DNA of 57,654 nt from an uncultured Candidatus Saccharibacteria bacterium (GCA_964368945.1 CAYJDM010000007.1:1365-59018), one strand, 5' to 3'. Shown: positions 4,849 to 49,280, counted from the first letter of the stretch. Notes: generated by a model from the sequence alone, not told the origin. Made by a program: numbers and translations.

Positions 4849-5181
4849 ATGACTAAAAAAGCAAAGCAGAATGAGGCTGAAAATGAAGGGCCGCTTACAA
4901 AAGGGGATGTTCGCGAAATTGTTACGGAAATAGTCACGGACATAACCACTAAGCTGATAGTCGCTTCTGAAGATCGGATGATGAAGCGGATGGATGAGAA
5001 ATTCGAGATCGCCCATCAGGGGATGATGAGCGGATTCGAATTGGTGAATGAGAAGATCGACGCTGTATCTGATCGGCTCGACAAGCATGTGGGTCAGAAT
5101 GCCGTATTGCTGAACAAGATGGATGCCCGCATCGATGTGCTTGAGACAAAAATGGCGCGGTTCCGCCATCGCACTGCCTAG
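4849..5181 (+). CDS. Hypothetical coiled-coil protein
   Basis: ORF with an ATG at 4849 (the track ORF begins at a GTG at 4813). Heptad-like charged sequence. No recognisable family. Confidence 0.4.
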   Translation: MTKKAKQNEAENEGPLTKGDVREIVTEIVTDITTKLIVASEDRMMKRMDEKFEIAHQGMMSGFELVNEKIDAVSDRLDKHVGQNAVLLNKMDARIDVLETKMARFRHRTA

Positions 5182-5209
5182 CACTTTATGCTAGAGTATC
5201 CCTACATAT

Positions 5210-7081: not shown

Positions 7082-7102
7082 GTCTGGCTTGTAGAAAATG
7101 AA

Positions 7103-7143
7103 AATGCCGCGTCCTTGAACAAGACGCGGCATTGATCGTTTTT
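7103..7143. terminator. Hairpin terminator between convergent argS and the 114-aa gene
   Basis: aatgccgcgtc / gacgcggcatt 11-bp stem followed by a T-run. Confidence 0.6.
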
Positions 7144-7157
7144 GACGGCAAGAGCGG

Positions 7158-7502
7158 TTACGCAAATGCGCAGCCTTCATTGGATTCCGGATGATCTGCG
7201 AACACTGACGGTTCTCCGCTTCGGTCTTCAGGCAGCTCGCGAAGATCCTCGCCATAGCATCTCTTCCATTTGATGTGTTCGTTGTTGCCGAACTGCCAAC
7301 CTGATCTAGGTTCGCTTGTGGCCCTTTGGAATTCCTCGACGCCCGCGCAGGTTGCTTTGTCGTAGGTTCCGTTTACTTCGATTCCGCTTGGATTGAAGAG
7401 GCGTTCTTTGAGCTTTTGTTGCAGGACTCTGACTGCGGGACCGGTAGATCCTTCGTAAAGAGCATAAGGAAAAAGTTTCCCTGGGATAGCTGAGTGGAGC
7501 AT
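7158..7502 (-). CDS. Small protein with a peptidoglycan-binding-like (PG_binding_1) segment
   Basis: GSTGPAVRVLQQKLK...GIEVNGTYDKATCAGVEEFQ resembles PG_binding_1. No signal peptide seen. Confidence 0.4.
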   Translation of the reverse strand: MLHSAIPGKLFPYALYEGSTGPAVRVLQQKLKERLFNPSGIEVNGTYDKATCAGVEEFQRATSEPRSGWQFGNNEHIKWKRCYGEDLRELPEDRSGEPSVFADHPESNEGCAFA

Positions 7503-7702
7503 AAACTGTATGACTGGATTAGTGGTTAGTACTGTATCGTTTCAAGGCGACGTTAAGAATACGGCTTTTATGCCCTGAGTCAATATTACGAGAGTGCATA
7601 CGTCGTCTGGTCAGGCTCAGGCCAATCTCTAGCCAATTTCCCATTTTTGCTATATAGTATCGCCATATTTGTCAGCTGATCTTGTAAATCAACAGACCCA
7701 AT

Positions 7703-8869
7703 ATGAATAAAAACCAAATACCAAACCAAGCCGGCGAGCAGCCGAAGGATTTTGCAGTCGTTATTGACGCGAATCCAGAGCCCGCCAACCGAGAAGAAAA
7801 AAGCGCATCAGCGCCGTCGAAGGAGCATACGATAATCCTTTTTTATAAATATACGCCGATCGCGAATCCGGCTGCTTTTGTCGCATGGCATAAGGAGGTC
7901 GGGCCAAAGCTCGGTCTGACCGGCCGCGTGCATATTGCGCATGAGGGAATCAATGCGACGCTCGAAGGCCTCAATGCCGACATCGAGACATATATGAATC
8001 TGATTCGCGGCAATGATTGTGGCGAATTCAAAGGCCAGTCTTTCGCTGATCTCAAGGATGTCGCCATCAAGACGAGCATCGGCATCGGAGATGCTTTTCC
8101 AAAATTCAAAGCCAAAGTAAAAGAAGAAATCGTCGCGCTCAAGCTCACTCGCGCTGATGGCGTCGAAGAAGATGTCGATCCGAATGAGATCACCGGCGTG
8201 CATCTCAAGCCTGAGGAATTGAAGTCATGGTATGACAATGGCGATGACTTTGTCATTCTCGATATGCGAAATGATTATGAATTCAAGGTCGGCCATTTCA
8301 AGAATTCGATCAATGTCGGGCTCAAGAATTTCCGCGACCTTCCGGAGGTTTTGCCCAAGCTCATCGAGAAGCATCCCGAGATCGCTGAGAAAAAAATCCT
8401 AACAGTCTGCACGGGCGGAGTGCGATGCGAAAAGGCGTCCGGTTTTCTCAAGAAGAAAGGCTTCGACGAGGTATATCAGCTCGATGGAGGCATGCATGTC
8501 TATATGGAAAAATTCCCCGGCAATGCATCGGAAGGCAAGCCTTGCGAATTCCGCGGAGCGCTCTATACATTCGATAATCGCATGACTATGGATTTCGTGG
8601 ACAATGATGCCGCTCCTGCGACAGGTGGCATTAATGCGCCGGCGGCTCGAGAAATCATAGGCCGATGCCAGGTCTGCGAAAATCCTACTGAGCGATATGG
8701 CCATTGCGCCAACGATATCTGTCATAAGCATCTCCTTATCTGCAAGGACTGCGCCCAGAACCATATATATGTATGGTGCTCGGCGGACTGCAAGGAGACG
8801 GGACGAGTAGGGGTTATCCATGCTGCAGATTTGGGCACGGAGGGCGTGATGATTTCGAGGGAGGAGTAG
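7703..8869 (+). CDS. trhO: Rhodanese-domain tRNA U34 hydroxylase (UPF0176/YceA family)
   Basis: ILFYKYTPI...GRVHIAHEGINATLEG N-domain, rhodanese loop CTGGVRCEKAS, and a Cys-rich C-terminal tail. Confidence 0.8.
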   Translation: MNKNQIPNQAGEQPKDFAVVIDANPEPANREEKSASAPSKEHTIILFYKYTPIANPAAFVAWHKEVGPKLGLTGRVHIAHEGINATLEGLNADIETYMNLIRGNDCGEFKGQSFADLKDVAIKTSIGIGDAFPKFKAKVKEEIVALKLTRADGVEEDVDPNEITGVHLKPEELKSWYDNGDDFVILDMRNDYEFKVGHFKNSINVGLKNFRDLPEVLPKLIEKHPEIAEKKILTVCTGGVRCEKASGFLKKKGFDEVYQLDGGMHVYMEKFPGNASEGKPCEFRGALYTFDNRMTMDFVDNDAAPATGGINAPAAREIIGRCQVCENPTERYGHCANDICHKHLLICKDCAQNHIYVWCSADCKETGRVGVIHAADLGTEGVMISREE

Positions 8870-8903
8870 GGGGGGGCTGGTCGAAATGAATTTTTGATAA
8901 AAA

Positions 8904-8931
8904 AACCGGGCCATTTTCGGCCTGGTTTTTT
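8904..8931. terminator. Bidirectional hairpin terminator after trhO
   Basis: aaccgggcc/ggcctggtt stem flanked by an A-run and a T-run. Confidence 0.6.
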
Positions 8932-9385
8932 GCCGTTCCTAACGCGCTTGACGGCCTGACTTTGCAGGCGTAGCATTTATATCCGGACCGCACATGCTCA
9001 GCCTGCCGTGAGGTCTATGTAAGTCAGTCAAACAAACCAACTCTGAATACCACATAGAAATAGTATGAGATCCTCAACTCTCGCTTCCGACGCTTCTAAC
9101 CGCGAGTATCCTCACATTCCGAGGGCGCTTTGGCCCTTCGTGTCCGACTCCAAGTCGTGGCCTCATTACCAGCAATTGGCATTGGCGTCTCGGCCTGAGA
9201 TCCCGGTCCCGGCCACCAAAGCCGCCACTCCGCGCCGCAAGCAGCGTCCCAGCAATCAGGTCCATCGCGATCATCGCCGCGCTCACAGCCGGCATTAGTC
9301 CTCGCTGCCAACACAGCCTTTAAAACCAACACAAATTCAGCCCGGCGCACCCTGTGAGGGAGCGCCGGGCTTCGATGTTATCGCT

Positions 9386-9727
9386 TTATGCCATATGCAG
9401 GGCTTCGGCGAAGACGGATTTGAATTCCGGATAGATCTGCCGTTTCGCTGCAGCGCGAACCCATTGGTTGGGGTCGTTTTCCAATTGTCTGAGTATGCGT
9501 GGCGGGGTATTGGGGTTTGCTGCCACGCATGAACGAACGACCTCATCGTCATCGCTGGCCATTCGTGCGAGCAAATGACGGCTGGCTTCTTTGCGTGATG
9601 CCACGAGGCTGCGCACCATGGCGCTTGGATGCTGCGCATTTGCGCGCAGCAGGAATTGGGTGCAATGACCGGAAAGGAGCTGGCGAATCAATGCATGATC
9701 GCCGCGCATAGGAGTAGGCGTTTGCAT
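9386..9727 (-). CDS. HEAT/LRV (leucine-rich repeat variant)-like repeat protein
   Basis: Repeated ...D..VR..VAANPNTPP.IL..L..D.N.WVRAAA pattern. Visibly GC-richer than its neighbours. Hairpin 9333-9366 lies downstream on the minus strand. Confidence 0.5.
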   Translation of the reverse strand: MQTPTPMRGDHALIRQLLSGHCTQFLLRANAQHPSAMVRSLVASRKEASRHLLARMASDDDEVVRSCVAANPNTPPRILRQLENDPNQWVRAAAKRQIYPEFKSVFAEALHMA

Positions 9728-9810
9728 GGATTTTGTTTGGGTTGAACTGACTTGACCATATGCTACGCCATTTATGTAAAATTCTCAATCCGTATGCTAG
9801 TATACGATCC

Positions 9811-12800
9811 ATGAAAACTAACCCAAACAATAACGCCAAGGATGCGGCGTTCGAGGACAAAGCAGCTTCAGAATCGCCAAAAAACGCGCCGGAATCAGTA
9901 GAGCAAAAATCTCCGGCAGCCATTCGCGAGGACGAGGTCTTGGCCTTCTGGGACAATGAGCGCATTTTTGAAAAATCGCTTGCCGCTACAAAGAACCCTT
10001 CTGGAGCTGATGGAAAGCCTGGCCAGCCGAGAAAGGATTTCGTCTTTTATGACGGTCCTCCATACGCGACAGGAACTCCGCATTTCGGCCATCTTTTGCC
10101 ATCGACGATCAAGGATGCGATTCCTCGATTCAAGACCATGCAGGGATATTATGTCTCTCGCCGATGGGGCTGGGATTGCCATGGCTTGCCGATCGAGAAC
10201 TTGATAGAAAAAGAACTGGGCCTCGAGGACAAGAAAGCCATCATCGATTATGGCATCGACAAATTCAATAAGGCGGCACGAGACAGCGTCTTTCGATATG
10301 ACCAGGAATGGAAAAAGGTAATTCACCGCGTCGGCCGATGGGTCGATATGGAAAATAATTATCAGACTATGGATTCGAGCTATACCGAATCCGTCTGGTG
10401 GTCTTTCGCGCAATTTTTCAATAAGGGCCTCGTCTACGAAGGATTCAAGACCATGCAGGTTTGTCCGCGATGCGAGACGACGCTCTCCAATTTCGAAGTA
10501 GGGCAGGGATATGCGGATGTGCAGGATATTTCCGTTTATGCGATGTTTCCGCTCAAGAATTCTGCGAATGGCGAGACTGATTACGCTCTCGCATGGACGA
10601 CTACTCCTTGGACTTTGCATGGCAATGCAGGATTGGCAGTTCATCCTGAGCTTTCTTATGTGAAGGTAAAATTGGTCAAAGCCGAGAACCCCGACAATAC
10701 CGGCAAGAATCTCATCCTCGCAGAATCTCGCTTGTCCGCGCTCAAGGAAACAGAAGGCGAGGATTATCAGATCGTAGACAAGTTTACCGGAGCGGAATTC
10801 GCAGAGCGATACTCTGATGGATATTCTCCAGTCTTTGATACATATGAGAAAAATAAATTCCCATTCGAATCGCAGGAAAAATTCCGCGACAATGCCTGGA
10901 AGGTCTGGACTGCTGATTTCGTTACGGCAGACACTGGAACGGGAATCGTGCATATAGCTCCTGCATTCGGAGACGATGACCGCAAGCTCGGAGAGGCCAA
11001 AGGCCTGCCGATGATCCATCATGTCGGCCTCAATGGACATGTCCGTGCGGAGCTCGGCGAGCCTTTTGCAAACAAGATGGTAAAGCCCAAAGACGATCCT
11101 CAGTCATATGATATCGAGGTTATCAAGGCGCTTGCTCATGCCGGCTTCCTGTATGCAAAGGAAAAAATCATTCACTCATATCCGCATTGCTGGAGATGCT
11201 CATATCCTCTCCTCAACTATGGAACATCGGGCTGGTTCATCGAGATGACCAAGCTTCAGCAGAAGATGCTCAGCGAGAATGCCGCAACGAAATGGGTTCC
11301 GGAAGAAATCGGCTCAGGCCGATTCGGCGCATGGCTCGAGAATATCCGCGATTGGAACCTCTCGCGATCCCGATTCTGGGGCGCTCCTTTGCCGGTATGG
11401 CGCGGCGTCGATACGGGCAAGATCCATGTCATCTCTTCGATCGCAGAGCTCAAGTCAAAGATCGAGAAAAGAAATTCATTTACCTTGATGCGGCATGGCG
11501 AAGCAGAATCGAATGTCCTCGGCATCATCAGCGCCAAGGATCTCACGATTCATGGCCTCACGGATCTCGGCCGCAAGCAGGTAGAGGAATCCGTCACCGC
11601 TCTCAAGGCTGCGAAGGAAGCGGCAGGAAAAAAGATAACGAAGATCTATTCTTCTGATTTCCGTCGAACGCGCGAGACTGCCGAAATGGCTGCGGATATG
11701 CTCGGAATACCTCGCGATCAGATCGTTTTTGATCATCGATTGGGCGAATGCGGCGGCGGCAAGCTCGAAGGAAAGAGCTGGGGAGAGCATTGGTCTCTTC
11801 TCTCGACGCCTCGCGATCGCATGTTTACTGCGCCGGAAGAAGCGGAGTGCGTCTTTGATGTGAAAAAGCGAGCGACCGAAGCCGTCTACGATATCGATGC
11901 GCAGAATGAGAACGAGGATATCCTCGTCGTCACTCATGGCCTGCCTTTGCGATTGATCAAATATGCATCGCTCGGACGAACCGCTCGCGATCTCTTGCGA
12001 ACGGGCTGGCAGGATATATCAGATCCGAATGCTTCATTGCATGAGCTCGATTGGAGAAATCTCCCGCATAATGAGACTTGGGAAATCGATATCCATCGAC
12101 CCTATGTCGATCATATCTCATGGGCTGATCCTGAGACAGGGGAGAAGATGGTCCGAATCCCAGAAGTATTCGATGTCTGGTACGATTCCGGCGCCATGCC
12201 TTTTGCCTCGAATCATTATCCATTCGAGCATGAGAATACCGACAATGTCAGCCCGAATACCGTATTCGAAGATACGATTGCCAATGCTCCTGCTTTGCCA
12301 GCTCAGTTCCCGGCGGACTTCATCGCCGAAGGGCTCGATCAGACTCGAGGCTGGTTCTATTCTTTGCTCGCGATCGGCGTGGGCTTATTCGATCAGTCTC
12401 CATACCGGAATGTCATGGTAAACGGCCTCATCCTCGCCGAGGATGGCCGCAAGATGTCCAAGCGCCTCAAGAACTATCCGGATATGTGGCCGACGATCGA
12501 GAAATATGGCGCAGACTCATTGCGATATTTCCTTGCAGCATCTCCATCCGTGCGCGGCGAAGAATTCGCATTCTCAGAAAAAGGCCTCGATGAAGTGAAT
12601 AAGAAGATCTTCAATCGAATCGACAATATGCATTCGTTCCTGATGATGTATGCCGTAGACGAAAAGGCAAAAGAAAAGGGAATGCTTCTCGATCGCGTCT
12701 CGAACAAATATTCCACAGCCGAAATAGATGGCATGCTCGCTGCGCTCAAGCACCCTCTGGATCTCTGGGTTTTGGCTCGGCTCAATCAGACTATCGAGCT

Positions 12801-13662
12801 CGTCACGACGAATCTCGAAGCATACCTTCTCGACAAGGCTACTCGTCCAATCGGCGATCTGATCGACGATGTTTCCACTTGGTATCTTCGACGATCCCGA
12901 GATCGATTCAAGGTTGATTCTCGCGCCGAGGATGCCGTATCTGCAACTGCTGATAGAGACGATGCAATCTTCACATTGCGATATGTTCTCGAGCGTTTGT
13001 CTCGAATCATGGCGCCCGTCACGCCTTTCATGGCTGAGCATCTGTATAAAAAAGTCCGCTTCGGCGATATCGAAAGCGTGCACCTCGAGTCATGGCCTGC
13101 TACTCCATCAATCGATGCTTCTATAATCGAAAGCATGGCGAAGGTTCGCGCATTGGTGGAGATCGGATTGGCAAAGCGCGCGGAAGCCAAGATCAAGGTC
13201 CGCCAGCCGCTCCAATCTTTTACTCATTCTTCTACGGAACTCACCCTTGAGCTCGAAGAAATCATCAAGGATGAATTGAATGTCAAAGAGATCAAGCGAG
13301 TCGAAGGAGGCGATGCCGCGAATGGCTCCGAATCTCTCGACATCGAAATCACTCCAGCCCTCCGCAAGGAAGGCGCCGTGCGAGACCTCATCCGCGCTAT
13401 CCAGCAGGAACGAAAGAATAAGGATCTCAATCCTCAGGACTCCATCGATTTGATCTGTGCGACTACGCCCGAAATCGAGGCCGTCATCAAGGATCATTCG
13501 CAGATGATCGAGCAGGCCGTGCAGGCAAAGGGCATTTCATTTGTCAGCGCAGATGCCGCCAAAGACGATGCGGAGATCTTGTCCGGAACAGCTGTCGACT
13601 TCTTCATGGATGCTGCATTCGATCCTACGACCGATACCGTCCGGTTCATAATCAAGGCATAA
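9811..13662 (+). CDS. ileS: Isoleucine--tRNA ligase with an embedded histidine-phosphatase domain
   Basis: HIGH (PHFGHLL), WDCHGLP, the editing CP1 region, NIRDWNLSRSRFWGAPLP and KMSKRLKN. The ATG at 9811 is preferred over the 9760 track start, which abuts the divergent gene. Confidence 0.9.
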   Translation: MKTNPNNNAKDAAFEDKAASESPKNAPESVEQKSPAAIREDEVLAFWDNERIFEKSLAATKNPSGADGKPGQPRKDFVFYDGPPYATGTPHFGHLLPSTIKDAIPRFKTMQGYYVSRRWGWDCHGLPIENLIEKELGLEDKKAIIDYGIDKFNKAARDSVFRYDQEWKKVIHRVGRWVDMENNYQTMDSSYTESVWWSFAQFFNKGLVYEGFKTMQVCPRCETTLSNFEVGQGYADVQDISVYAMFPLKNSANGETDYALAWTTTPWTLHGNAGLAVHPELSYVKVKLVKAENPDNTGKNLILAESRLSALKETEGEDYQIVDKFTGAEFAERYSDGYSPVFDTYEKNKFPFESQEKFRDNAWKVWTADFVTADTGTGIVHIAPAFGDDDRKLGEAKGLPMIHHVGLNGHVRAELGEPFANKMVKPKDDPQSYDIEVIKALAHAGFLYAKEKIIHSYPHCWRCSYPLLNYGTSGWFIEMTKLQQKMLSENAATKWVPEEIGSGRFGAWLENIRDWNLSRSRFWGAPLPVWRGVDTGKIHVISSIAELKSKIEKRNSFTLMRHGEAESNVLGIISAKDLTIHGLTDLGRKQVEESVTALKAAKEAAGKKITKIYSSDFRRTRETAEMAADMLGIPRDQIVFDHRLGECGGGKLEGKSWGEHWSLLSTPRDRMFTAPEEAECVFDVKKRATEAVYDIDAQNENEDILVVTHGLPLRLIKYASLGRTARDLLRTGWQDISDPNASLHELDWRNLPHNETWEIDIHRPYVDHISWADPETGEKMVRIPEVFDVWYDSGAMPFASNHYPFEHENTDNVSPNTVFEDTIANAPALPAQFPADFIAEGLDQTRGWFYSLLAIGVGLFDQSPYRNVMVNGLILAEDGRKMSKRLKNYPDMWPTIEKYGADSLRYFLAASPSVRGEEFAFSEKGLDEVNKKIFNRIDNMHSFLMMYAVDEKAKEKGMLLDRVSNKYSTAEIDGMLAALKHPLDLWVLARLNQTIELVTTNLEAYLLDKATRPIGDLIDDVSTWYLRRSRDRFKVDSRAEDAVSATADRDDAIFTLRYVLERLSRIMAPVTPFMAEHLYKKVRFGDIESVHLESWPATPSIDASIIESMAKVRALVEIGLAKRAEAKIKVRQPLQSFTHSSTELTLELEEIIKDELNVKEIKRVEGGDAANGSESLDIEITPALRKEGAVRDLIRAIQQERKNKDLNPQDSIDLICATTPEIEAVIKDHSQMIEQAVQAKGISFVSADAAKDDAEILSGTAVDFFMDAAFDPTTDTVRFIIKA
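11470..12085 (+). other. Histidine phosphatase superfamily (PGAM-like, branch 1) domain inserted in IleRS
   Basis: LMRHGEAESN (RHG), SSDFRRTRETA, GECGGGKLEGKSWGE and VVTHGLPLR lie in frame between IleRS blocks ...SSIAELKSKIEK and IDIHRPYVD. Confidence 0.7.
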
Positions 13663-13669
13663 TAGCCTC

Positions 13670-14338
13670 ATGTCATATCGCATATACACTTCGGATGCGT
13701 TCATACTTTCTGCCAAGCATTCAAAGGATGCGGATCTTTCGCTTTTCGTCTTTACGGAAAAGTTCGGCCTCCTGCATGCGACCGCCAAGTCCGCGCGCCA
13801 TATGAAATCCAAGCTGCGGTATTCGCTGCAGTCCATGACCTTCGGCAGCATCTCGCTCGTGAAGGGCAGGGAGATTTGGCGCGTCACGAGCGCAAAGAAG
13901 ATGATCAATCTCTATGATAAAAGAATTCCGGCCGCTTTGCGCACATTTCTCGCACGCATGCTTGTCATGGTTGAGCGCTTTTGTCCGCGCGAGCAGCCCG
14001 AGCCCGTCATCTTTGATATTCTGAAATCCATTTCGGGCTTCGTCTTCAAGGATCTGGCTGCCGCCGCGGCCGCTGTTGCTGTCTCTGATGGCTCTGCGCA
14101 AACTGCATTGCAGAATCCCGCACAGGATCTGGCGCAGAACCTGACGCGCTTCGAGCAGGTCTGCATGCTCAAGCTCATGTACGAGCTCGGCTATGTCGAG
14201 ATTAATCCGCAGATTCAGATTTTTATCCAGGAAAAAATCGATTCGGCCTTCATGAATATTCTCGACCTCATGACCGAAGGGCAGGAGAGGGCCGTCGCCG
14301 TCGCTGTCGATCGCGCGATTGTTCAGAGCCATTTGTAG
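13670..14338 (+). CDS. recO: DNA repair protein RecO
   Basis: The N-terminal OB-fold pattern (AFILS...D..L.VFT...G...ATAKSARHMKSKL) is typical of RecO. Confidence 0.6.
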   Translation: MSYRIYTSDAFILSAKHSKDADLSLFVFTEKFGLLHATAKSARHMKSKLRYSLQSMTFGSISLVKGREIWRVTSAKKMINLYDKRIPAALRTFLARMLVMVERFCPREQPEPVIFDILKSISGFVFKDLAAAAAAVAVSDGSAQTALQNPAQDLAQNLTRFEQVCMLKLMYELGYVEINPQIQIFIQEKIDSAFMNILDLMTEGQERAVAVAVDRAIVQSHL

Positions 14339-14370
14339 ATCGCTGATTCAATAGAACGGACCTCATTCAT

Positions 14371-14411
14371 GGTGTAACTAACTATCACGTTGCGTGATAG
14401 TTAGTTACACC
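14371..14411. repeat. Perfect 19-bp inverted repeat with a 3-nt loop
   Basis: ggtgtaactaactatcacg-ttg-cgtgatagttagttacacc. No T-run follows. Confidence 0.9.
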
Positions 14412-14428
14412 AACATCAAAGTCAAAGT

Positions 14429-14471
14429 GCGTAGAATAAACTAGGACGTAACGTCTAGGTTTCTTCTACGC
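14429..14471. repeat. Second, imperfect hairpin
   Basis: gcgtagaa...ttctacgc outer stem, with an inner ctagg/acgt-containing stem. Confidence 0.7.
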
Positions 14472-14528
14472 ATATGGATGTCGGCTTGATATCTGCATGC
14501 GCCATCTCGCATATGCTATACTTTTTCC

Positions 14529-16634
14529 ATGAATAGCGATCAGGACAAGATCGAGAACCTTAAAAAGCGCCTAGATTCGATATCGAATGCGCCATCTCAT
14601 TCGCTTCGCCCGAAATTGCATAGACATCCGTCTGCGATCGGCAATGCTTGGGCCGATGACGAGAGTGATTCTGACAATTATGGCCGCTCTGCTTCGAATC
14701 CGATCAATCCTCCCGCGCAAGGAGCACCAGGCGCACTTTCCAGCATTCCAGTCTTGCCCACAGATCCCGCTGCGGCAAATTCTGCCTATGGCATCGCCCA
14801 GGCTGCGACGAATAAGCCCGACCTGCTCGCCGGCTCACTCTATGGCAAGGATGCTCTATATAAGGATAAAAAAGACCGACGCGGCAAGACGCTCAAGCGC
14901 GTCCTGCTTGTTTCGGTTTTTGGCTTTTTGGCAGCATGCCTTTTCGCCTGGTACAACTATTCGACAGGCGGCAACTATATCTCAGGATCAAATATCGATA
15001 TAGCAGTAGTCGGTCCCGTCGCGGCCCCTTCCGGCGAAGTCCTGTCCATGGATGTGGACATCCATAATCGAAATGCCAGCGCGCTCGAAAATGTCGATCT
15101 CATAGTCCAGTACCCGGAAGGATCCCGAAAGGCTGAAGATGGCGTCACCACTGTCTTGAACGATCGAATTCCAATCGGCACGATGAAGCAGGGCGAGACG
15201 GTCCGACGCCGCGTGGACATAATCCTGTTCGGCGAGCAGGATACAAAGAAGGAATTCAAATTCACGGTCCAGTATCGCGTGCCTGGCTCGGTCATACTTT
15301 TCAATAAGGAAAAAACATATCCGATATTCATCGGCTCCGCGCCTATTTCCATCAATGTCTCATCGCTCAAGGAAGTGACGCCGAATCAGACCGCCACATT
15401 CAAGGCCGTTATCACTTCGAATTCGGCCAATGTCATCCGAAACCTCGTATTCAATGCCGCATATCCGACAGGTTTCGTCTTCGAAAAATCCACTCCTTCG
15501 ACATCATTCGGAAACAATGTCTGGACGATAGGGGATATGAAGCCTGGCGATACGCGAGAGATCACCATCTCCGGCAAGATCATCGGCGATGCATCAGTCG
15601 AGCGATATTTCACATTCACAGCCGGCACGGAGGATCCTATCGACAAGAGCCGCATCGCATCGCGACTCGTCGAAAGCAAGCAGAAGATCGAGATCAAGAA
15701 GCCTTTCTTCTCGGCTGATGTTTCCTTGAACAAATCAGGCGATGCCGTCTATGTCGGACGAGCCGGCGAGGAGATCCAGGGCGAAATCGTCTGGCAGAAT
15801 AATCTCGATGTTCCTTTGAATGATGCAATCATCGAGGCAAAAATACTCGGGCCAACATTGGAAAAGACGAGCGTCAGCGCTGAGCGCGGATTCTATAATT
15901 CGATCACCAATACGATCGTATGGGATAAGACCAATGTCGAAGACCTTGCCGAGCTTTCGCCTGGCAAATCTGGAGTGCTTCAATTCAGCTTCGCATCGAT
16001 GGTTCCGAATCAGCAAAATAATTCGAACCTTCGCCGACAGGAAATCTCCCTCGCGATCACCGTTCGCGCAAAGCGCCTAAGCGAAAGCCAGGTTCCTGAA
16101 GAGATGAAGTCGACGGCATCTCGCACGGTCAAGATCGCATCAAGCCTCGCTTTTACGTCAAAGGTGGTGCATAGCATCGGTCCGATAGAGAATAGCGGCC
16201 CGATTCCTCCGCGAGCTGAAGCAAAGACTACCTATACGGTCATGAATTCTGTCCGCAATTCATTTAATAATGTCAAAAACGTAACGTATACCGCGACGCT
16301 TCCATCGTATGTGACATGGACGAATAAGGTCTATCCAGAATCCGCGGCTCCGAATATCAAATACAATGCCGATACGCGCCAGATCACTTGGTCGCTCGGA
16401 GATATCGCGCCAGGCACCGGATACAATTCTTCTTCAAAGGATTTCGCTTTCCAGCTGGAGCTTTTGCCAAGCATCAGTCAGGTCGGCAATGCGCCCATCC
16501 TCGTGAATATCCAGCGATTGGCAGGAACGGATGCATTTACTGAAAGCATAGTTGAAACCACTTTGCCTGCCATCGATACGCGCATGGATGAGGATCCTCA
16601 ATTCCAGTTCGGCTTGGAAAAGGTTGTGAGATAA
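14529..16634 (+). CDS. Large membrane-anchored protein with beta-rich extracytoplasmic repeats (hypothetical)
   Basis: 701 aa. Disordered N-terminus, one TM helix (VLLVSVFGFLAACLFAWY), then a long beta-sandwich-like region. No catalytic motif recognised. Confidence 0.6.
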   Translation: MNSDQDKIENLKKRLDSISNAPSHSLRPKLHRHPSAIGNAWADDESDSDNYGRSASNPINPPAQGAPGALSSIPVLPTDPAAANSAYGIAQAATNKPDLLAGSLYGKDALYKDKKDRRGKTLKRVLLVSVFGFLAACLFAWYNYSTGGNYISGSNIDIAVVGPVAAPSGEVLSMDVDIHNRNASALENVDLIVQYPEGSRKAEDGVTTVLNDRIPIGTMKQGETVRRRVDIILFGEQDTKKEFKFTVQYRVPGSVILFNKEKTYPIFIGSAPISINVSSLKEVTPNQTATFKAVITSNSANVIRNLVFNAAYPTGFVFEKSTPSTSFGNNVWTIGDMKPGDTREITISGKIIGDASVERYFTFTAGTEDPIDKSRIASRLVESKQKIEIKKPFFSADVSLNKSGDAVYVGRAGEEIQGEIVWQNNLDVPLNDAIIEAKILGPTLEKTSVSAERGFYNSITNTIVWDKTNVEDLAELSPGKSGVLQFSFASMVPNQQNNSNLRRQEISLAITVRAKRLSESQVPEEMKSTASRTVKIASSLAFTSKVVHSIGPIENSGPIPPRAEAKTTYTVMNSVRNSFNNVKNVTYTATLPSYVTWTNKVYPESAAPNIKYNADTRQITWSLGDIAPGTGYNSSSKDFAFQLELLPSISQVGNAPILVNIQRLAGTDAFTESIVETTLPAIDTRMDEDPQFQFGLEKVVR

Positions 16635-16650
16635 ATGGAGAGATAGCCAT

Positions 16651-16678
16651 TTGACGAACCTGAAGGCGGGTGTATGAT
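16651..16678 (+). promoter_or_regulatory. Sigma70-like promoter (TTGACG-16 nt-TATGAT)
   Basis: -35 at 16651-16656 and -10 at 16673-16678, immediately after the stop of the 701-aa gene. Confidence 0.45.
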
Positions 16679-16684
16679 TATTTT

Positions 16685-17214
16685 GCGATCGGATACCCAT
16701 CCGGTCGTTTAGCTACCAATACAATCGTGGCAGTTGAAAGAAAAGCCCCGGTCTTGCGGAGTATCCCAACCTCCCGTATCCGCATGCCTCGGCTCACGAC
16801 TTGCTTTGGCTGGACAGTGGAACAGCAAAGCAGGGAGATAGAAATCGAAAGCCTCAAGCCGGCAATGTCCGGCAATCGGCAATCGAGGTGACCGCTCTGC
16901 GGCACTCCATAAGTACAAAAAGAAGCGCAATAGCCAATCAATTAGCTTAGCGCTCAAGCATGCTGACACTCAAAGCCTGAAGACGGCATGCTATCCGATA
17001 CCGCGACCAACCCATCCTCCGATCGCGCGGTAGAGGAAGTTTAACAATGATTCGGAGGGCCAATAATTCACGGCCGGCATTGAGGCTTGCGCCTCGCAGC
17101 CCGCCAGTACACTAATTGGTCAAAATCGGCACAATCCGTACGTTCCCTCGTCTGACACCCTGTTGGTGTTGGCACCGTCGCCGGTGAGAGGGGGCGTACG
17201 GCTCTTCTTTTTTC
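16685..17214 (+). ncRNA. Candidate structured non-coding RNA of unknown class
   Basis: About 530 nt between the promoter and a strong terminator. It has no convincing ORF and at least eight local hairpins: 16687-16706, a 16851-16889 stem enclosing three GGCAAT repeats, 16917-16949, 16958-16995, 17003-17032, 17058-17075, 17082-17095 and the terminator. Confidence 0.3.
17136..17214 (+). terminator. Long intrinsic terminator
   Basis: 14-bp stem ccgtacgttccctc / gagggggcgtacgg (two G-U pairs) with an internal sub-hairpin, followed by ctcttctttttt. Confidence 0.65.
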
Positions 17215-17218
17215 ACGC

Positions 17219-17248
17219 TTGACACCAGATTAATATGTACGCTATTAT
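17219..17248 (+). promoter_or_regulatory. Promoter/operator of the Phd-RelE operon (TTGACA-18 nt-TATTAT)
   Basis: The -10 ends 6 nt before the ATG at 17255, implying a leaderless mRNA. TGTAC-containing repeats (atatgtac / ttatgtacat) overlap the -10. Confidence 0.5.
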
Positions 17249-17254
17249 GTACAT

Positions 17255-17539
17255 ATGAGAATAAATGACATATTGTCAATCACCGAGGCAAGAAAGAACA
17301 TATTCGACATCGCTGAAGCGACTCAGAAAAAAGGTCGGCATTTCATGCTGACTGACAAGGGTCGACCGGCGGCAGTAATCATGTCGGCGGCTCAATACGA
17401 GTCATGGGCGGAAACGCTCGAGGTACTGTCTGATTTTCCCAATATCGAGGCAGATATTCGAAGCGCGCGCAATGATCTTGTCAAGAACAAATTCATGAGA
17501 CTCGATGAGGTTCGCAAGTCTTATGATAGAAAGAAATAA
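17255..17539 (+). CDS. Type II antitoxin, Phd/YefM family
   Basis: ITEARKNIFDIAE......MLTDKGRPAAVIMSAAQYESWAETLEVLSD. Confidence 0.85.
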   Translation: MRINDILSITEARKNIFDIAEATQKKGRHFMLTDKGRPAAVIMSAAQYESWAETLEVLSDFPNIEADIRSARNDLVKNKFMRLDEVRKSYDRKK

Positions 17540-21642: not shown

Positions 21643-21732
21643 CTTTAAAAAAGCCTTCTTTTGGGCTACTATATGCAATACGCAGCTGATCGCCGGCCAG
21701 GAGGAAAGGGTCGAAAATCATGCGCCATAACT

Positions 21733-23199
21733 ATGAAAAACAAACCTTTTTATATAACGACGACCCTGCCATACGTGAATGCGGAGGCGCATATGGGCCA
21801 TGCCTTGGAATTCATCCAGGCCGACTACATTGCGAGGCATAAGGCCATGCAGGGGCATGAGGTTTTTTTCAATACGGGAACTGACGAGCACGGCCTTAAG
21901 ATCTATCAGAAAGCGCTCGAAGCCGGACTTTCGCCGAAGGATTATGTCGATGGCTATGCGGAAAAATTCAAGGCATTGAAGCCGATCCTGAACTTGAGCT
22001 TTACGCATTTCATCCGGACAACTGATACAAATCATATCGAGGCTGCGCAGGAATTCTGGAAGCGATGCGCGCAGAATGTGGATGCGGACGGGAAGTCGGA
22101 TGTCTATAAGGGAGAATACGATGCGAAGTACTGCGTCGGCTGCGAACTGGAAAAGTCAGAGTCGGAGCTCGTCGATGGCAAATGCCCGATTCATCCGAAT
22201 AATGAGATCCAGATCATCAAGGAGGAAAATTATTTCTTCAGATGGTCTCGCTATCAGCAGGCTTTGCTCGATTTGTATCGCGATCGACCAGATTTCGTCG
22301 TACCTGAAGGCCGATTGAATGAGATCCGCACATTTGTCGAAGGCGGCTTGAGGGATTTCAGCATTTCGCGAAAGAAGGACAAGATGCCTTGGGGCGTTCC
22401 TGTTCCAGGCGATGATGAGCATGTCATGTATGTCTGGTTCGATGCTCTCGTGAATTATATTTCGACGACTGGCTGGCCGAACGAAGGAGCGGATTCTGAT
22501 TTCGCGAAATTCTGGCCAGGCATGCAGGTTGCGGGCAAGGACAATCTCCGACAGCAGTCAGCGATGTGGCAAGCGATGCTTATGTCAGCAAAGCTTCCTG
22601 CATCTTCGCAGATTTTCATCCACGGCTTCATTACGAGCGGAGGACAGAAGATGAGCAAATCGATCGGCAATGTCATCAATCCGCTCGATGTGGTCAATGA
22701 ATTCGGCATTGATGCCTTGCGATATTTCCTCGCTCATCAGCTTCCCGCATATGAGGATGGGGACTTTACGATGGAGCGGTTCAAGGAGGCATACAATACG
22801 CAGCTCGCTAATGGAATCGGAAATCTCACAAGCCGAATTCTCAAGATGGCGGTTTCGTATGAGGTTTCCTTCGAAGGAATTAATAGCGATCTTGCTGGGA
22901 AAGCGGAGCTTTTCAATAAGCTTGAGGCGCCTTTCGCGCGTTTCAATTTCGCCGAGGCGTCAGATGTGGTCTGGAAGAGGATCGGCGAGCTGGATGTTTT
23001 TATCCAAGAAAATGCTCCATTCAAGAAAATAAAAGTCGATGCCGATGCAGCCAAGAAAGACGTGCGATATCTGCTCGAAGAATTGTACAAGGTCGCATAT
23101 GCGCTCGCTCCATTCATGCCTGAGACTTCGGAGAAGGTGATTGCATTACTCGAGGCGGGGACATTCCCTGAGACGCCGCTTTTCTTGCGACGAGACTAA
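21733..23199 (+). CDS. metG: Methionine--tRNA ligase (short form)
   Basis: FYITTTLPYVNAEAHMGHA (HIGH), Zn-knuckle CVGCE...CPIH, and KMSKSIGN. The ATG at 21733 is preferred. Confidence 0.9.
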   Translation: MKNKPFYITTTLPYVNAEAHMGHALEFIQADYIARHKAMQGHEVFFNTGTDEHGLKIYQKALEAGLSPKDYVDGYAEKFKALKPILNLSFTHFIRTTDTNHIEAAQEFWKRCAQNVDADGKSDVYKGEYDAKYCVGCELEKSESELVDGKCPIHPNNEIQIIKEENYFFRWSRYQQALLDLYRDRPDFVVPEGRLNEIRTFVEGGLRDFSISRKKDKMPWGVPVPGDDEHVMYVWFDALVNYISTTGWPNEGADSDFAKFWPGMQVAGKDNLRQQSAMWQAMLMSAKLPASSQIFIHGFITSGGQKMSKSIGNVINPLDVVNEFGIDALRYFLAHQLPAYEDGDFTMERFKEAYNTQLANGIGNLTSRILKMAVSYEVSFEGINSDLAGKAELFNKLEAPFARFNFAEASDVVWKRIGELDVFIQENAPFKKIKVDADAAKKDVRYLLEELYKVAYALAPFMPETSEKVIALLEAGTFPETPLFLRRD

Positions 23200-45080: not shown

Positions 45081-46028
45081 GGCGTCTATTCCGAATACAT
45101 TATGCGAACTAACTCAAGAAAGCGGTCATCTTAAATGAAGCCTCTCAAGGTTGCATATTAAGAAGACCGCTCGAAAGGCGGCATCTTTTTTTCCAAAAAG
45201 ATAACGCTGAGAAAAGCGCAGAGTCCGAGTTCGGAGATTCCTTGAAATCAAAAACCTGTCCTGACATTTCAGTGAAGCGATTCATGTCGAAAGATATGAG
45301 TTGTTTGTATCTGGGTCTTTAGTCGGAGGCAGAGTCATTAGATTGGGCGAGAAGCCGAGCGAGAACTTCAACTGTCACAAGGTTGAGAGGTCGAGCATCT
45401 AATGACAAGCCACCGTATTCCTTCAAGTAAAAATACGGTGGTGCAGGTAACAAATAAAAGTGATTGTGGTCTTTATATTTCCTAATGGGATTTATAAGGG
45501 CATATGGTGGATGCCTTGGCATAACACAGCGATGAAGGACGTAGCATGGCGACGATATGCTTCGGGGAGGTGCCTAGCAACCTTTGATCCGAAGATTTCC
45601 GAATGGGGAAACCCCAGGGACATGAGCCCTGATCTAGTTTCATCTAGATGCGAACCCGGAGAAGTAAAACATTTCAGTAACCGGAGGAAAAGAAAACAAG
45701 CACGCAAGTGCACAATTCTCTAAGTAGCGGCGAGCGAAAAGGGAAGAGCCCAAACCAAGCTTTCCTATGGACGGTGACAATGGCTACGCAAGTAGCTGAT
45801 GTTTCTGTCTATTGGGTAGCTTGGGGTTGTAGGATAGAAACTGGACATTTATGTTCAAAGAGTTACAAAATGCTTCGTTAGCAGAATAAGCTGGAAAGCT
45901 TAACCCAAGACGGTGATAGTCCCGTAAGCGAAAACGAAGTATCTCTTGTTTCTACTCCTGAGTACCCCGAGACATGAATAGCTCGGGGGAATCCAGCAGT
46001 ACTAACTGCTAAGGCTAAATATGTGTTA

Positions 46029-46069
<41 letters not shown>

Positions 46070-47468
46070 AAGTCCGGTGAGGACAGTGAAATAGACCTGA
46101 AACCATATGCCTACAAGGAGTCGGAGCGGTAATTTATTACCGTCACGGCGTGCCTATTGAAGAATGAGCCAACGAGTTAATGAATACTGCGCGGCTAAGC
46201 CCGAGAGGGTGGAGCCATAGGGAAACCGAGTGCGAATAGCGCGTTTGTAGTATGCATTAGACCCGAAGCCAATGCGAGCTTACCATGAGCAGGGTGAACT
46301 ATGTCGAAAGATGTAGGGAGGCCCGAACCCGTTAGTCGTTCAACTCTTTGGGATGACTTGTGGTAAGAAGTGAAAAGCTAATCGAGCTTGGTAATAGCTG
46401 GTTCTCTCCGAAATAGCTTTTGGGTTAGCGTCACGTGTTCCCTCTGGGGGTAGAGCACTGGAAGGACTTGACAGGGAGAAATCTCGCAAGTCCTATCAAA
46501 CTCCGAATACCAGAGGTCAAGAACGTGGCAGTTAGACCGTGGGGGCGAAGCTCCACTGGTCAAAAGGGAAACAGCCCTTGATCCCAATTTAAGGTCCCTA
46601 AATTCATGCTAAGTGCAAAAGAAGGTGGTGGAATTTCATAGACAATGAGGAGGTTTGCTTAGAAGCAGCAATCCTTGAAAGATAGCGTAACAGCTCACTC
46701 ATCAAGAGACTTCGCGCCACAAATGATCGGGGCTCAAGCATAGTACCGAAATTTGGGATTTATATATTCTTCGGAATATATGAGTGGTAGGAGAGTGTTT
46801 GCATCGCGTTGAAGGGAAAGGGGTGACCCATCCTGGAGCATTGCAAAGCAAGAATGTTGGCACAAGTAACCACAATCGATGTGAAAAACATCGACGCCGA
46901 AAGATCAAGGTTTCCTCAGCTACGATTGTCGACTGAGGGTTAGTCAGGCCTAAGGGGATGGAGAGATCCGAACCCGATGGACACATGGTTAATATTCCAT
47001 GACTTTCGTATAGAATGATGGAGTGACGGAGTGGAGTATGTAGAACAGGTTATTGAATTCCTGTTTGTGTAGAGAGATAGTTGACTAGGCAAATCCGGTC
47101 ACTGACTTTAATGTCGATATCTGATTCTATATGACGTGAGTCTACAAAGCACGCTTCCGAGAAAACCTTCTAAGTTTATCTATACGAAAACTGTACCGCA
47201 AACCGACACAGGTGATCAGGTCGAGCAGACCAAGGCGAACGAGTGAGAGGTCTTCAAGGAACTCGGCAAAAAAGCAACCGTAACTTAGGGATAAGGTTCG
47301 CCCACAGCAATGTGGGTCTCAGCAAAAGTTTCTCTGGCGACTGTTTATCAAAAACACAGCTCCCTGCGAAGTCGCAAGACGATGTATAGGGGGTGACACC
47401 TGACCAATGCCAGAAGGTTAAATATCGGCGTTCTTATAGCAATATAAGGGTGACTGATATATGCCCTG

Positions 47469-47503
<35 letters not shown>

Positions 47504-47739
47504 TCAGCACTCATCGCAAGATGATTGCTGACGGACTAGGACTGTCATAGTAGTGTTTTGAGAAAACTAAAGAGTCGAATCGTAAAGATTTAAATTACAC
47601 ATTAAGTAGCTACCTACTGTGCAGTAATGCATCAGTTAGTCCAATATGGTTAGCGAGAGACCAACGCCATACATCCCAACTTTGCGATCGCAAGATCATG
47701 AAGAGGATGAAGATAGAGTCCTTCTGAGAGGAATAGAAG
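47504..47739 (+). other. 236-nt ORF-less intron-like insertion at the 23S site equivalent to E. coli U1931
   Basis: Interrupts ...ACGGTCCTAAGGT | AGCGAAATTCCTTGTC.... It follows a U and ends in G. It has GNRA-capped hairpins and AAGATAGAGTCC near its 3' end. Confidence 0.6.
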
Positions 47740-48402
47740 AGCGAAATTCCTTGTCTGGTAAGTTCAGACGCGCACGAATGGTGTAACGAGTTGGGAACTG
47801 TCTCGGAGACTTGCCCGGTGAAAATGCAATGGAGGTGAAGATGCCTCCTACCTGCAGCTAGACGAAAAGACCCCAGAAGCTTCACTGCAACCTGATATTG
47901 AGTGTATGTTTTTGCTGCGTAGCATAGATGGGAGAGGTTGAGATTTCGGTTTCGGCTGAAATGGACTCGTCAGTGAAATACCATTCTTCAAAAATATACA
48001 TTCTAACCTCGACGGCATAAAAACGTCGAGAAACAGTGTCTGGTGGGCAGTTTTAGTGGGGCGCTATCCTCCCAAAAAGTAACGGAGGAGTTTAAAGGTC
48101 AGCTAGGTGCGAATGGAAACCGTACCGATAGCGCAATGGCATAAGCTGGCTTAACTGTGAGACGTCAATGTCAAACAGACGCGAAAGCGGAACATAGTGA
48201 ACCGACCATACGCATTAGATGCGGTGGAAGATTATCTGATAAAAGCTACTCTGGGGATAACAGGCTGGTTGTATCTAAGAGTCCATATCGACGATACAGT
48301 TCGGCACCTCGATGTCGGCTCGACTTATCCTGGGGCTGTAGAAGGTCCCAAGGGTTTGGCTGTTCGCCAATTAAAAAGTCACGCGAGCTGGGTTCAGACC
48401 GT

Positions 48403-48762
48403 GTAGTAGTTAATCGCAAGATTTACTTCTACACAGTCTGAATCCTCGAGAGATTCATAAGTTTACAAGTCTAAGTAAACAAAAGATGTTAGACGAAAAC
48501 CAAATTCGATTCTTGTCCGAGTAGGACTAAGAACATACGAATATTCACGGCGGTCATTTGGAGAAATCCATTTTGATCAAGTTAACTAATTTCGGTAAAA
48601 TCCCAATGCCTCTGCGCGAGTACGCATGGACAATACCGAGGGAAGTTCAGGCGAAAGCATGAACGCCCGTAGAGACTACACGTTAACTATCTTCATTCAT
48701 GATTCAAATTATGAAAAAGATAATGATATAGTCCATTCCATGCAGTAATGCATGAAAAGAAG
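48403..48762 (+). other. 360-nt ORF-less group-I-like intron at the 23S site equivalent to E. coli U2593
   Basis: Interrupts ...GGGTTCAGACCGT | CGTGAGACAGGTTGG.... It follows a U and ends in G. It carries an R-like element GTAGAGACTACA (48669-48680) and an S-like element GATATAGTCC (48725-48734). Confidence 0.65.
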
Positions 48763-49167
48763 CGTGAGACAGGTTGGTCTCCTATCTGCTGCAGGCGTTG
48801 ATACTTGAGAAGATTTGCCCTTAGTACGAGAGGACCGGGGTGAACTAACCTCTGGTGTACCAGTTGTCATGCCAATGGCATTGCTGGGTAGCTATGTTGG
48901 GAATGGATAAGCTCTGAAAGCATCTAAGAGCGAAGCCAGCTTCAAGATTAGGTATCGTTTGAGGCCCGTGAGAGATGATCACGTTGATAGGCACCAAGTG
49001 TAAGCGCAGTAATGCGTTGAGCTGAGGTGTACTAATGCGCCGATTCCTATTAGGAAATATATTGATGACGATCACTTTTATTTGTTACGTGCATGATTAA
49101 AATACTTGAATCAAATCGCTGTAAAAGGCTTATTTGATATAAAAAAGACCAACCGAATTGACTCTTC

Positions 49168-49280
49168 TGTTCTGGTGACTTGTCGATGGGGAAACACCTG
49201 ATCTCATTCCGAACTCAGAAGTTAAGCCCATCAGAGGCGATGATACTCATTTATGGGGAAAGTAGCTCGTCGCCAGTACA
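49168..49280 (+). rRNA. rrf: 5S rRNA
   Basis: ...CCTGATCTCATTCCGAACTCAGAAGTTAAGCCCATCAG...GTAGCTCGTCGCCAG. Ends are approximate. Confidence 0.85.

Follow-up and report, generated by a model that had tools for sequence, protein, structure and literature searches.

Aminoacyl-tRNA synthetases (aaRSs) are among the best-studied enzymes, and new domains found in them have repeatedly led to new biology (editing, signalling, resistance). A catalytic domain within an aaRS is exemplified by the INS/YbaK-type editing insertion of ProRS. Phosphatases are also joined to enzymes that act on RNA ends: T4 Pnkp combines a P-loop kinase with a HAD phosphatase, and the E. coli CCA-adding enzyme carries an HD phosphatase domain. 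In structures of isoleucyl-tRNA synthetase (IleRS), the stretch that follows the CP2-CP3 linker (yeast ARDWNVSRNRYWG) is named the CP3 subdomain (PMC7955072). The topology of CP3 varies among IleRSs, and a zinc motif is present in CP3 of the Thermus thermophilus enzyme (PMC7191050). Here we describe the IleRS gene, ileS, on a 57,654-nucleotide stretch of DNA from an uncultured Candidatus Saccharibacteria bacterium (GCA_964368945.1, CAYJDM010000007.1:1365-59018), hereafter the window. Its CP3 subdomain contains a nested 197-residue compact PhoE/PspA-type branch-1 histidine phosphatase. An IleRS that incorporates a phosphatase with an intact catalytic set, as encoded by hundreds of uncultivated species, is apparently new to the literature.

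The synthetase scaffold and its nested phosphatase

The ileS gene occupies a single unbroken type-2 IleRS open reading frame (ORF) at 9760..13662 of the + strand (1300 amino acids, aa). In the public annotation the second ATG, at 9811, serves as the start codon, for a product of 1283 aa, in line with the uninterrupted frame of about 1280 aa reported in a preliminary description of this DNA. The peptides quoted in that description (PLPVWRG, ISSIAELKSKIEK, LMRHGEAESN, SSDFRRTRETA, GECGGGKLEGKSWGE, VVTHGLPLR, IDIHRPYVDHI and RIPEVFDVWYDSG) are all found in the ORF. Pfam recognizes tRNA-synt_1 (split in two by His_Phos_1), Anticodon_1 and DUF5915 in its product, and the score for the ileS equivalog TIGR00392 (805.3 bits) is above the cut-off of 621.4. 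The nearest solved sequence is the type-2 Priestia megaterium IleRS2 (8C8V; E-value 1.8e-184, 619 bits), followed by 1ILE and 7D5C, whereas the type-1 IleRS 1FFY scores 239 bits. The fold is also nearer to type 2 than to type 1 (Foldseek E-value 1.6e-77 versus 2.5e-47), and a full-length model superposes on 8C8U, 7D5C and 1ILE (template modelling score, TM, normalised to the target, 0.77-0.83; 0.73-0.83 over all type-2 IleRSs compared).

Conservation was assessed in the 120 best matches to the window protein (from 100% down to 46-47% identity; 1144-1357 aa). The CP1 editing domain, with its Thr-rich and GTG-VH-AP-G-DD motifs, is present and conserved in about 120/120 of these homologs. A first zinc site (C235, C238, C477, C480) is kept in essentially all of them. 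Judged by its sequence, the scaffold is a complete type-2 IleRS (IleRS2/MupA-like, eukaryote/archaeon-like), with both the predicted synthetic and the predicted editing sites intact. Its features are as follows.

9760..13662, + strand: ileS, type-2 isoleucyl-tRNA synthetase with nested phosphatase (Pfam, NCBIfam, homologs)
10078..10092, + strand: HIGH-type signature P-H-F-G-H, aa 107-111, in the Rossmann fold (P, H108 and G in 120/120 homologs, H111 in 117/120)
10594..10614, + strand: CP1 editing motif WTTTPWT, aa 279-285 (kept in 119-120/120)
10936..10980, + strand: CP1 editing motif GTGIVHIAPAFGDDD, aa 393-407 (G393, G395, H398, A400, G404 and D407 in 120/120)
11344..11382, + strand: CP2-CP3 linker IRDWNLSRSRFWG, aa 529-541, matching yeast residues 453-465
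11383..11472, + strand: N-terminal part of CP3, aa 542-571 (in the window with Gly at position 549 and Thr at 552)
12064..12192, + strand: C-terminal part of CP3, aa 769-811, from HRPYVD to FDVWYDSG and back into the Rossmann fold
12451..12462, + strand: KMSK signature, aa 898-901 (K, M and K in 120/120)
12760..13215, + strand: anticodon-binding domain PF08264, aa 1001-1152 (Pfam)
13336..13560, + strand: C-terminal DUF5915 region, aa 1193-1267 (Pfam)

The preliminary description had placed a phosphatase domain at 11470-12085 (aa 571-775), in a loop that is short in other IleRSs, and two alignments bear this out. Alignment to 8C8V breaks at residues 549/766 of the query, which correspond to chain residues 459/476, and about 217 residues of the window protein occupy the place of 17 in 8C8V. 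A hidden Markov model (HMM) built from 62 uninserted IleRSs of the Candidate Phyla Radiation (CPR) places 203 extra residues at aa 571-773. Between WGxP and DVW[FY]DSG, fused proteins have about 250 aa and uninserted ones 55-79 aa. The observation as a whole is far beyond chance. GC content and skew are steady across the insert, which speaks against a recent horizontal insertion. A Cys4 zinc knuckle whose first Cys pair lies at positions 549 and 552 coexists with the insert in 32/120 relatives (Cys at 549, 552, 790 and nearby); the subgroup of the window is without these residues (88/120 lack the knuckle). Because these Cys residues are kept beside the insert in the former set and lost in the window's subgroup, the phosphatase can be placed at the tip of the CP3 hairpin, which by its sequence pattern is a Cys4 zinc knuckle in some relatives.

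The insert matches Pfam family PF00300 (His_Phos_1) at aa 575-766 with high significance (E-value 1e-27; 97.5 bits, with a gathering threshold of 21.7; positions 2-182 of the 194 in the profile), and when scanned alone it reaches an E-value of 2.2e-29 (103 bits). The active-site residues, listed below, are present in 119-120/120 homologs. This pattern agrees with the earlier proposal of an intact and possibly active branch-1 phosphatase module within the aminoacylation core.

11473..12063, + strand: nested histidine phosphatase (His_Phos_1, PhoE/PspA-like), aa 572-768, at insertion hot spot A (Pfam, conservation, fold)
11491..11499, + strand: RHG motif R578-H579-G580, with H579 the predicted phospho-accepting nucleophile (120/120; H579 in 206/206 site-A domains)
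11512..11514, + strand: N585 of the RHGxxxxN motif (120/120)
11665..11667, + strand: R636, second phosphate-binding arginine, in the SxxxR[TA] motif (120/120)
11746..11748, + strand: E663, predicted proton donor, in the D-x-R-L-x-E motif (119/120)
11869..11871, + strand: R704, invariant arginine (120/120)
11935..11937, + strand: H726, second catalytic histidine, in T-H-G (120/120)

Among solved structures, the nearest sequence neighbour of the insert is the broad-specificity phosphatase PhoE (1EBB/1H2E), and identity to PhoE and PspA is only 22-30%. A family profile finds the metal-independent phosphoserine phosphatase PspA (4IJ5; E-value 1.2e-23) and PhoE (4.6e-23), then TIGAR, a small S. pombe mutase and the alpha-ribazole phosphatase CobC. 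The module belongs to the histidine phosphatase superfamily but to no characterised subfamily, because all curated equivalog cut-offs are missed widely. Scores are 39.5 bits versus a cut-off of 350 for the PspA model of NCBIfam, 57.6 versus 162.9 for CobC and 25.2 versus 74.5 for SixA. The second-best NCBIfam model for the insert, the RNase H/acid phosphatase PRK07238, gives 62 bits versus 326. Membership of the dPGM group was rejected likewise: dPGM_arch gives 67 bits versus 225, the domain has about 195 aa versus the ~250-aa form, and the root-mean-square deviation to dPGMs is poorer.

The AlphaFold model of the insert alone, made with a 33-sequence alignment, has a pLDDT (predicted local distance difference test) of 91.1 and a pTM (predicted TM) of 0.87, which indicates that the module folds independently. 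Foldseek matches this model with a probability of 1.00 and a target-normalised TM of 0.70-0.76 to PhoE, PspA, Rv2419c and HFP. The matches are phosphatases of about 200 residues (6S2Q, 4IJ5, 1H2E, 4PZ9 and 9MMH), and longer mutases fit worse. In a near-full-length model (aa 47-1246; pLDDT 86.3, pTM 0.78), the phosphatase scores 88-97. With scores of 90 or more at either junction, the module appears to be fixed rigidly to CP3 by two short, ordered connectors. A Foldseek search with the full-length model found no PDB entry that spans both the IleRS body and the phosphatase.

The junction residues of the insert are N572/S573 and N771/E772. An intein or other self-splicing element was considered and rejected: no Hint or intein family was found in the Pfam scan, and the phosphatase fold begins 5 residues past the junction and takes up the insert from there. 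No PADLOC defence family matches the insert at E-values up to 0.01. The insert is slightly acidic (median net charge -3, isoelectric point 6.1), and the IleRS itself is acidic too, which makes charge a weak test of tRNA binding.

Insertion hot spots and their cargo in CPR synthetases

A survey of related CPR genomes revealed many with the same insertion. PF00133 and PF00300 occur together in 120/120 of the best homologs, whose source names are Paceibacterota, Parcubacteria and Taylorbacteria, and at least 263 GTDB species genomes encode a fused IleRS (scan of one genome per species). We compared the loci of the best 80 of these GTDB relatives, which are titled Paceibacterota, Parcubacteria, Nomura-, Taylor- and Zambryskibacteria, Minisyncoccia, or carry generic 'Saccharibacteria' labels of metagenome-assembled genomes. 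In 80/80 loci the gene is one uninterrupted ORF with the insert at the identical place. Insert and core are conserved to the same degree among close relatives (identity 0.81 versus 0.80); among more distant ones the insert is conserved somewhat less (0.42 versus 0.54). The catalytic set is also kept in all site B, site C and tandem copies introduced below, except for three single substitutions. Taken together, the alignments indicate long-term purifying selection on the phosphatase active site.

An exhaustive search covered 1.84 billion cluster representatives; a word-indexed search with the insert alone had returned 8 free-standing proteins and missed the fused family, and is unfit for member counts. 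Three kinds of protein are interleaved when ranked by similarity to the query: fused proteins, uninserted ones (CP3 segment of 55-79 aa), and proteins with a normal CP3 and the phosphatase elsewhere. Insert sites were located by mapping the flanks onto the window protein and by the HMM of uninserted IleRSs, as gapped pairwise alignment fragmented the inserts. Flank mapping placed site A in CP3 (approximately aa 571/769), site B between HYPFE (~822) and FPADFIAEG (~850), and site C between ~965 and 997, at the start of the anticodon-binding domain. When 379 IleRSs were aligned to the uninserted HMM, all large insertions (60 aa or more) were confined to a few discrete hot spots.

Hot spot A: 247 large insertions, phosphatase in 240
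Hot spot B: 42 large insertions, phosphatase in 26
Hot spot C: 73 large insertions, phosphatase in 70
Two minor editing-domain spots: 4 large insertions each, phosphatase in 0
Spot at approximately aa 1186 (short insertions of ~60 aa): 20 large insertions, phosphatase in 0
12247..12300, + strand: hot spot B loop in the window, aa 830-847, 18 aa (least confident region of the full-length model)
12691..12738, + strand: hot spot C loop in the window, aa 978-993, 16 aa (phosphatase there in other CPR lineages)

The commonest phosphatase architecture is A (219 proteins), followed by C (39), B+C (16), B (6), tandem A+A (4), A+C (3) and A+B+C (2); A+B also occurs. Two proteins, P0285 and P0286, hold three phosphatase copies each. 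Site B and C proteins come from Gracilibacteria and Peregrinibacteria (e.g. P0161, which is PCI25629.1). On a rough neighbour-joining tree, one clade unites 65/70 of the site-C domains and another 24/26 of the site-B domains, and the Paceibacteria site-A domains make up a further one; the closest phosphatases that stand alone, with identities of no more than 38%, are interspersed among these clades. The site-wise clades therefore indicate that each site is an old, separately inherited phosphatase lineage.

Other domains share the hot spots. GNAT acetyltransferases occupy those of Gracilibacteria/Peregrinibacteria-type IleRSs, in which hot spot B holds a phosphatase, GNAT, kinase, HAD or hydrolase domain. 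Scores of these GNAT-IleRSs for the NCBIfam model NF040702 (ileS_w_GNAT) are 245-296 bits versus a cut-off of 1999, so that they were not assigned to that family. In a singleton, P0344, a tandem HAD_2 phosphatase replaces His_Phos_1 at site B. AAA_33-type P-loop kinases accompany the phosphatase in P0341, P0372 and P0382, and P0198 likewise has a kinase insert at site B; the best solved relative of this cargo is the RNA-repair kinase Pnkp1 (4XRP, E-value 1.7e-5). A serine hydrolase is inserted in P0225 and a Nudix domain is embedded in P0232.

Several further observations concern this cargo. In-frame DUF559 endonuclease-like and IS200-type Y1 transposase domains lie in the editing domain (near window aa 267 and 304) and in CP3 of the Gracilibacteria/Peregrinibacteria-type proteins P0372, P0382, P0226, P0300-P0302 and P0364, and by sequence resemble parts of mobile elements that became fixed in an essential enzyme. 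Another domain, with roughly 200 aa and the sequence ...YLSNKLYAKIRNWW..GH....SDF.FLP.LL.., recurs at hot spots A, B and E1 of P0323, P0334, P0378, P0385 and P0276. Alone it matches no Pfam family; there are weak matches to MuF_C (2e-6, in P0334) and to the PADLOC model PDC-M04B (7e-4). At the locus of P0344, the one HAD-bearing IleRS (L081, 4880-10515), genes for a PRK-family kinase and a PemK/MazF toxin lie directly upstream of ileS, with a 73-bp gap after the toxin gene, and a gene for a CCA-adding enzyme lies 2 kb further upstream; this was seen at this single locus only.

Gene neighbourhood and other synthetases

The gene order in the window (1737-19298) is thyX (- strand), glyA, argS, a trhO-like rhodanese gene (UPF0176), ileS, recO, a gene for a DUF11 protein, and glyS. 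A core of argS-ileS-recO-(640-aa DUF11 protein)-glyS is kept in most of the 80 related loci, and glyA lies upstream of ileS in 32/80 of them as well as in the window. A MetRS gene (21661..23199) and then TatD follow glyS, which brings five aaRS genes within 25 kb.

The phosphatase is confined to IleRS in this set: none was found in ArgRS, GlyRS, MetRS or LysRS of the window, and the phosphatase HMM matches 0/57 argS and 0/51 glyS copies in the 80 loci. LysRS (27126-29141, + strand; PRK00484, 552 bits, aa 6-512) has a C-terminal DUF2000 domain instead (PF09391, aa 539-669, E-value 8.9e-19), which makes it another aaRS of the window to which a domain has been added. The sole other match of the phosphatase HMM in the 80 loci is a free-standing paralogue in a Taylorbacteria locus (L055, 1580-2410), a 277-aa histidine phosphatase with the motif RHPES encoded upstream of the fused ileS. 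Its identity to the embedded domains is only 24-29%, which argues against a fission product.

An 890-bp gap (8870-9760) with GC raised to 0.58 separates the rhodanese gene from ileS. It holds a 113-aa minus-strand ORF (9386..9727) in which HEAT/LRV-like repeats were read by eye; a search of 8800-9900 found no credible T-box or other leader RNA upstream of ileS. The window clearly belongs to a CPR bacterium, of Paceibacteria type. Elsewhere in it, the 23S rRNA gene (45481..49056) is split by a group I intron (48504..48755, 62.6 bits) and is followed by 5S (49171..49278). Protein genes and a distance of about 8 kb separate this pair from a downstream 16S rRNA gene, which begins at 57595, an unlinked and unusual order. 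No tRNA gene was found in the 57.6-kb window. A 1007-aa protein encoded at 38386-41409 (+ strand) has an LCAT-like alpha/beta-hydrolase core (PF02450, E-value 1.9e-11).

Possible function and comparison with known systems

We see roughly even chances that the module is an active accessory phosphatase (a phosphomonoesterase), providing a third activity functionally tied to IleRS. The product of ileS would then be one bifunctional chain, a type-2 IleRS plus a CP3-nested phosphatase. By analogy with the chemistry of the family, the module would be a metal-independent phosphomonoesterase working through a phospho-H579 intermediate, in which R578, R636, R704 and H726 would hold the phosphate and E663 would protonate the leaving group. 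Comparative data suggest that the phosphatase is not a random passenger: the same family has been kept for long in three loops, in up to three copies; a HAD phosphatase replaces it in one protein, a polynucleotide-kinase-like or Nudix domain is sometimes its neighbour, and the other four aaRSs of the window are without it. Because it sits in three different loops and can be lost, its coupling would most likely depend on nearness to the substrates of IleRS and not on a fixed channel that leads to the synthetic site. As a guess, the substrate may be a ribose 2'/3'-phosphate on adenosine, i.e., a blocked 3' end of tRNA-Ile or a free adenine nucleotide or adenylate-like ligand. The preliminary description had named tRNA 3' ends, AppppA-type by-products and a nucleotide alarmone as targets, in pure speculation. 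The case for a nucleotide or tRNA-end substrate is circumstantial. It draws on the nature of the host enzyme, on the HAD domain that substitutes in one protein, on the companion domains (Nudix and Pnkp1-like kinase) and on three precedents: the HD phosphatase of the E. coli CCA-adding enzyme, fusions of RNase H with an acid phosphatase, and toxSAS toxins, which pyrophosphorylate the CCA end of tRNA.

Several observations weigh against an accessory role of this kind. In the model, the PhoE-type cap together with the slightly acidic charge would suit a small-molecule phosphatase better than a tRNA-binding one, and the published descriptions of IleRS-tRNA complexes that we consulted report no contact of CP3 with tRNA. 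The gene neighbourhoods, in the window and in the 80 loci, are purely housekeeping and give no functional hint. By core sequence, fused IleRSs can have uninserted ones as their closest neighbours (61-66% identity), and the presence or absence of the module requires about 29 changes on the core tree versus 41.6 with shuffled labels. For these reasons the module must have been lost or gained repeatedly and is dispensable for IleRS function. Moreover, DUF559 endonuclease-like and IS200-type Y1 transposase domains sit in-frame in the same IleRS scaffolds, from which it follows that neutral or selfish insertions apparently do become fixed in ileS.

A bolder extension of the accessory-phosphatase reading, which we put forward tentatively and consider rather doubtful, is that CPR IleRSs are modular 'armoured' synthetases, in which interchangeable catalytic cargo in a few fixed loops (histidine or HAD phosphatases, Pnkp-like kinases, GNATs, Nudix and a serine hydrolase) protects or repairs isoleucylation itself. 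The cargo could strip a blocking 2'/3'-(pyro)phosphate or a cyclic phosphate from the 3' end of tRNA-Ile; alternatively, it could inactivate adenylate-mimicking inhibitors at their target. If true, repair or defence enzymes lodged within the target they serve would form a new class.

A less probable account than an accessory phosphatase, which nevertheless deserves serious consideration, is that an autonomous housekeeping enzyme (for a small-molecule step in the reduced metabolism of CPR bacteria, with phosphoserine, a sugar phosphate or a nucleotide as possible substrate) was captured in a permissive loop of a large, essential protein, the fusion meaning co-expression only. The nearest relatives are indeed small-molecule phosphatases (PhoE, PspA, Rv2419c, CobC and the riboflavin phosphatase HFP), the cap is present, the charge ranges from acidic to neutral, IleRS persists where the module has been lost, the hot spots take many unrelated enzymes, and the position of glyA upstream of ileS is loosely compatible with serine supply. 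However, chance capture is hard to credit when His_Phos_1 makes up ~336 of ~370 large insertions at three loops, in separate old clades. Double and triple copies are retained with intact active sites, an unrelated HAD phosphatase fold is found in the same hot spot, and the module is missing from the other aaRSs of the window and from argS and glyS of the 80 loci, all of which fit capture poorly. Catalysis might also not be what was selected: the domain could sense a phospho-ligand and regulate IleRS accordingly, or it could have taken the place of the CP3 zinc knuckle as a structural element or for dimerisation. We regard this as improbable. It would explain the position at the tip of a Cys4 knuckle that the window's subgroup (88/120) has lost and the rigid connectors of the model, and many His_Phos_1 enzymes are dimers. 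Yet binding would not need both the nucleophile His and the proton-donor Glu, which are present in essentially every copy at every site; besides, knuckle and insert coexist in 32/120 relatives and the domain sits in three different loops.

Quite improbable in our view is a neutral or selfish remnant, i.e., cargo of a mobile element homing into ileS, with permissive loops and drift in small symbiont populations. DUF559 and Y1 (IS200-like) domains in the same scaffolds, highly conserved motifs flanking the hot spots, and CPR self-splicing elements in essential genes, including the group I intron in the 23S rRNA of the window, are in favour of such an origin. It is difficult to reconcile with catalytic residues conserved over class- to phylum-level divergence and with an insert as conserved as the core in close relatives, and there is neither an intein/Hint signature in an insert filled by the phosphatase fold nor a composition shift. 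An artefact of assembly or gene calling that joins two genes, a concern raised in the preliminary description, is exceedingly improbable and was rejected: the same single ORF is found in 80/80 independent GTDB assemblies and in hundreds of clusters from NCBI, JGI, ENA and Logan, and IleRS sequence resumes on both sides of the insert.

Overall, the comparative data suggest an unrecognised phosphate-removing step tied to isoleucine charging in CPR bacteria. The module of the window is one instance of a broader pattern (three hot spots, multiple copies, alternative cargo and repeated loss) that the preliminary description did not cover. In full-text literature searches, no publication turned up in which IleRS and a histidine phosphatase are combined or CPR synthetases of this kind are described; the preliminary description likewise knew of no aaRS with this architecture. 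One JGI record does carry the name 'isoleucyl-tRNA synthetase/phosphohistidine phosphatase SixA/...GNAT'. At NCBI, fused IleRSs are named 'class I tRNA ligase family protein', 'hypothetical protein' or even 'GNAT family N-acetyltransferase', loose naming that a dedicated architecture model would mend. The data also define three, possibly five, permissive insertion loops in class Ia synthetases, which may be of use for engineering.

Among known systems, curated IleRSs with an extra catalytic domain form the NCBIfam family NF040702 (acetyltransferase), to which the window protein does not belong (279 bits versus 1999; no GNAT domain); both this family and ProRS INS differ from it in carrying acetyltransferase or editing domains, not phosphatases. 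RNA end-healing enzymes (T4 Pnkp, Pnkp1, the HD domain of the CCA enzyme) likewise join a phosphatase to an enzyme of RNA or tRNA ends. Unlike them, the window protein has no kinase domain in Pfam and no ligase partner was seen, so that it was not taken for a Pnkp-type enzyme; four relatives (P0341, P0372, P0382 and P0198) pair the phosphatase with a kinase. To our knowledge, His_Phos_1 is not a fold used for RNA-end healing. The RNase H/acid phosphatase (PRK07238; mycobacterial Rv2228c/RnhC type) also unites a nucleic-acid enzyme and His_Phos_1 in one chain, but this is an end-to-end fusion with another partner enzyme and not a loop-nested domain; we know of no physiological substrate established for it. 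PhoE of Geobacillus stearothermophilus (1EBB/1H2E) and PspA of Hydrogenobacter thermophilus (4IJ5) share with the insert the capped fold of about 200 aa and the R-H-G...N...R...E...R...H set, whereas both are free-standing and have known small-molecule substrates. With type-2 IleRSs (8C8V; T. thermophilus 1ILE; yeast 7D5C/8WND; MupA/MupB) the window protein has in common the motifs and the order of Rossmann fold, CP core, CP1 editing domain, CP2, CP3, anticodon-binding domain and C-terminal region. Its scores for the MupB and MupA models (661 and 637 bits) are far under the cut-off of 1900, which sets it apart from those resistance enzymes. What it adds to the type-2 plan is a phosphatase of about 200 residues in CP3, in a subgroup that has lost the zinc knuckle.

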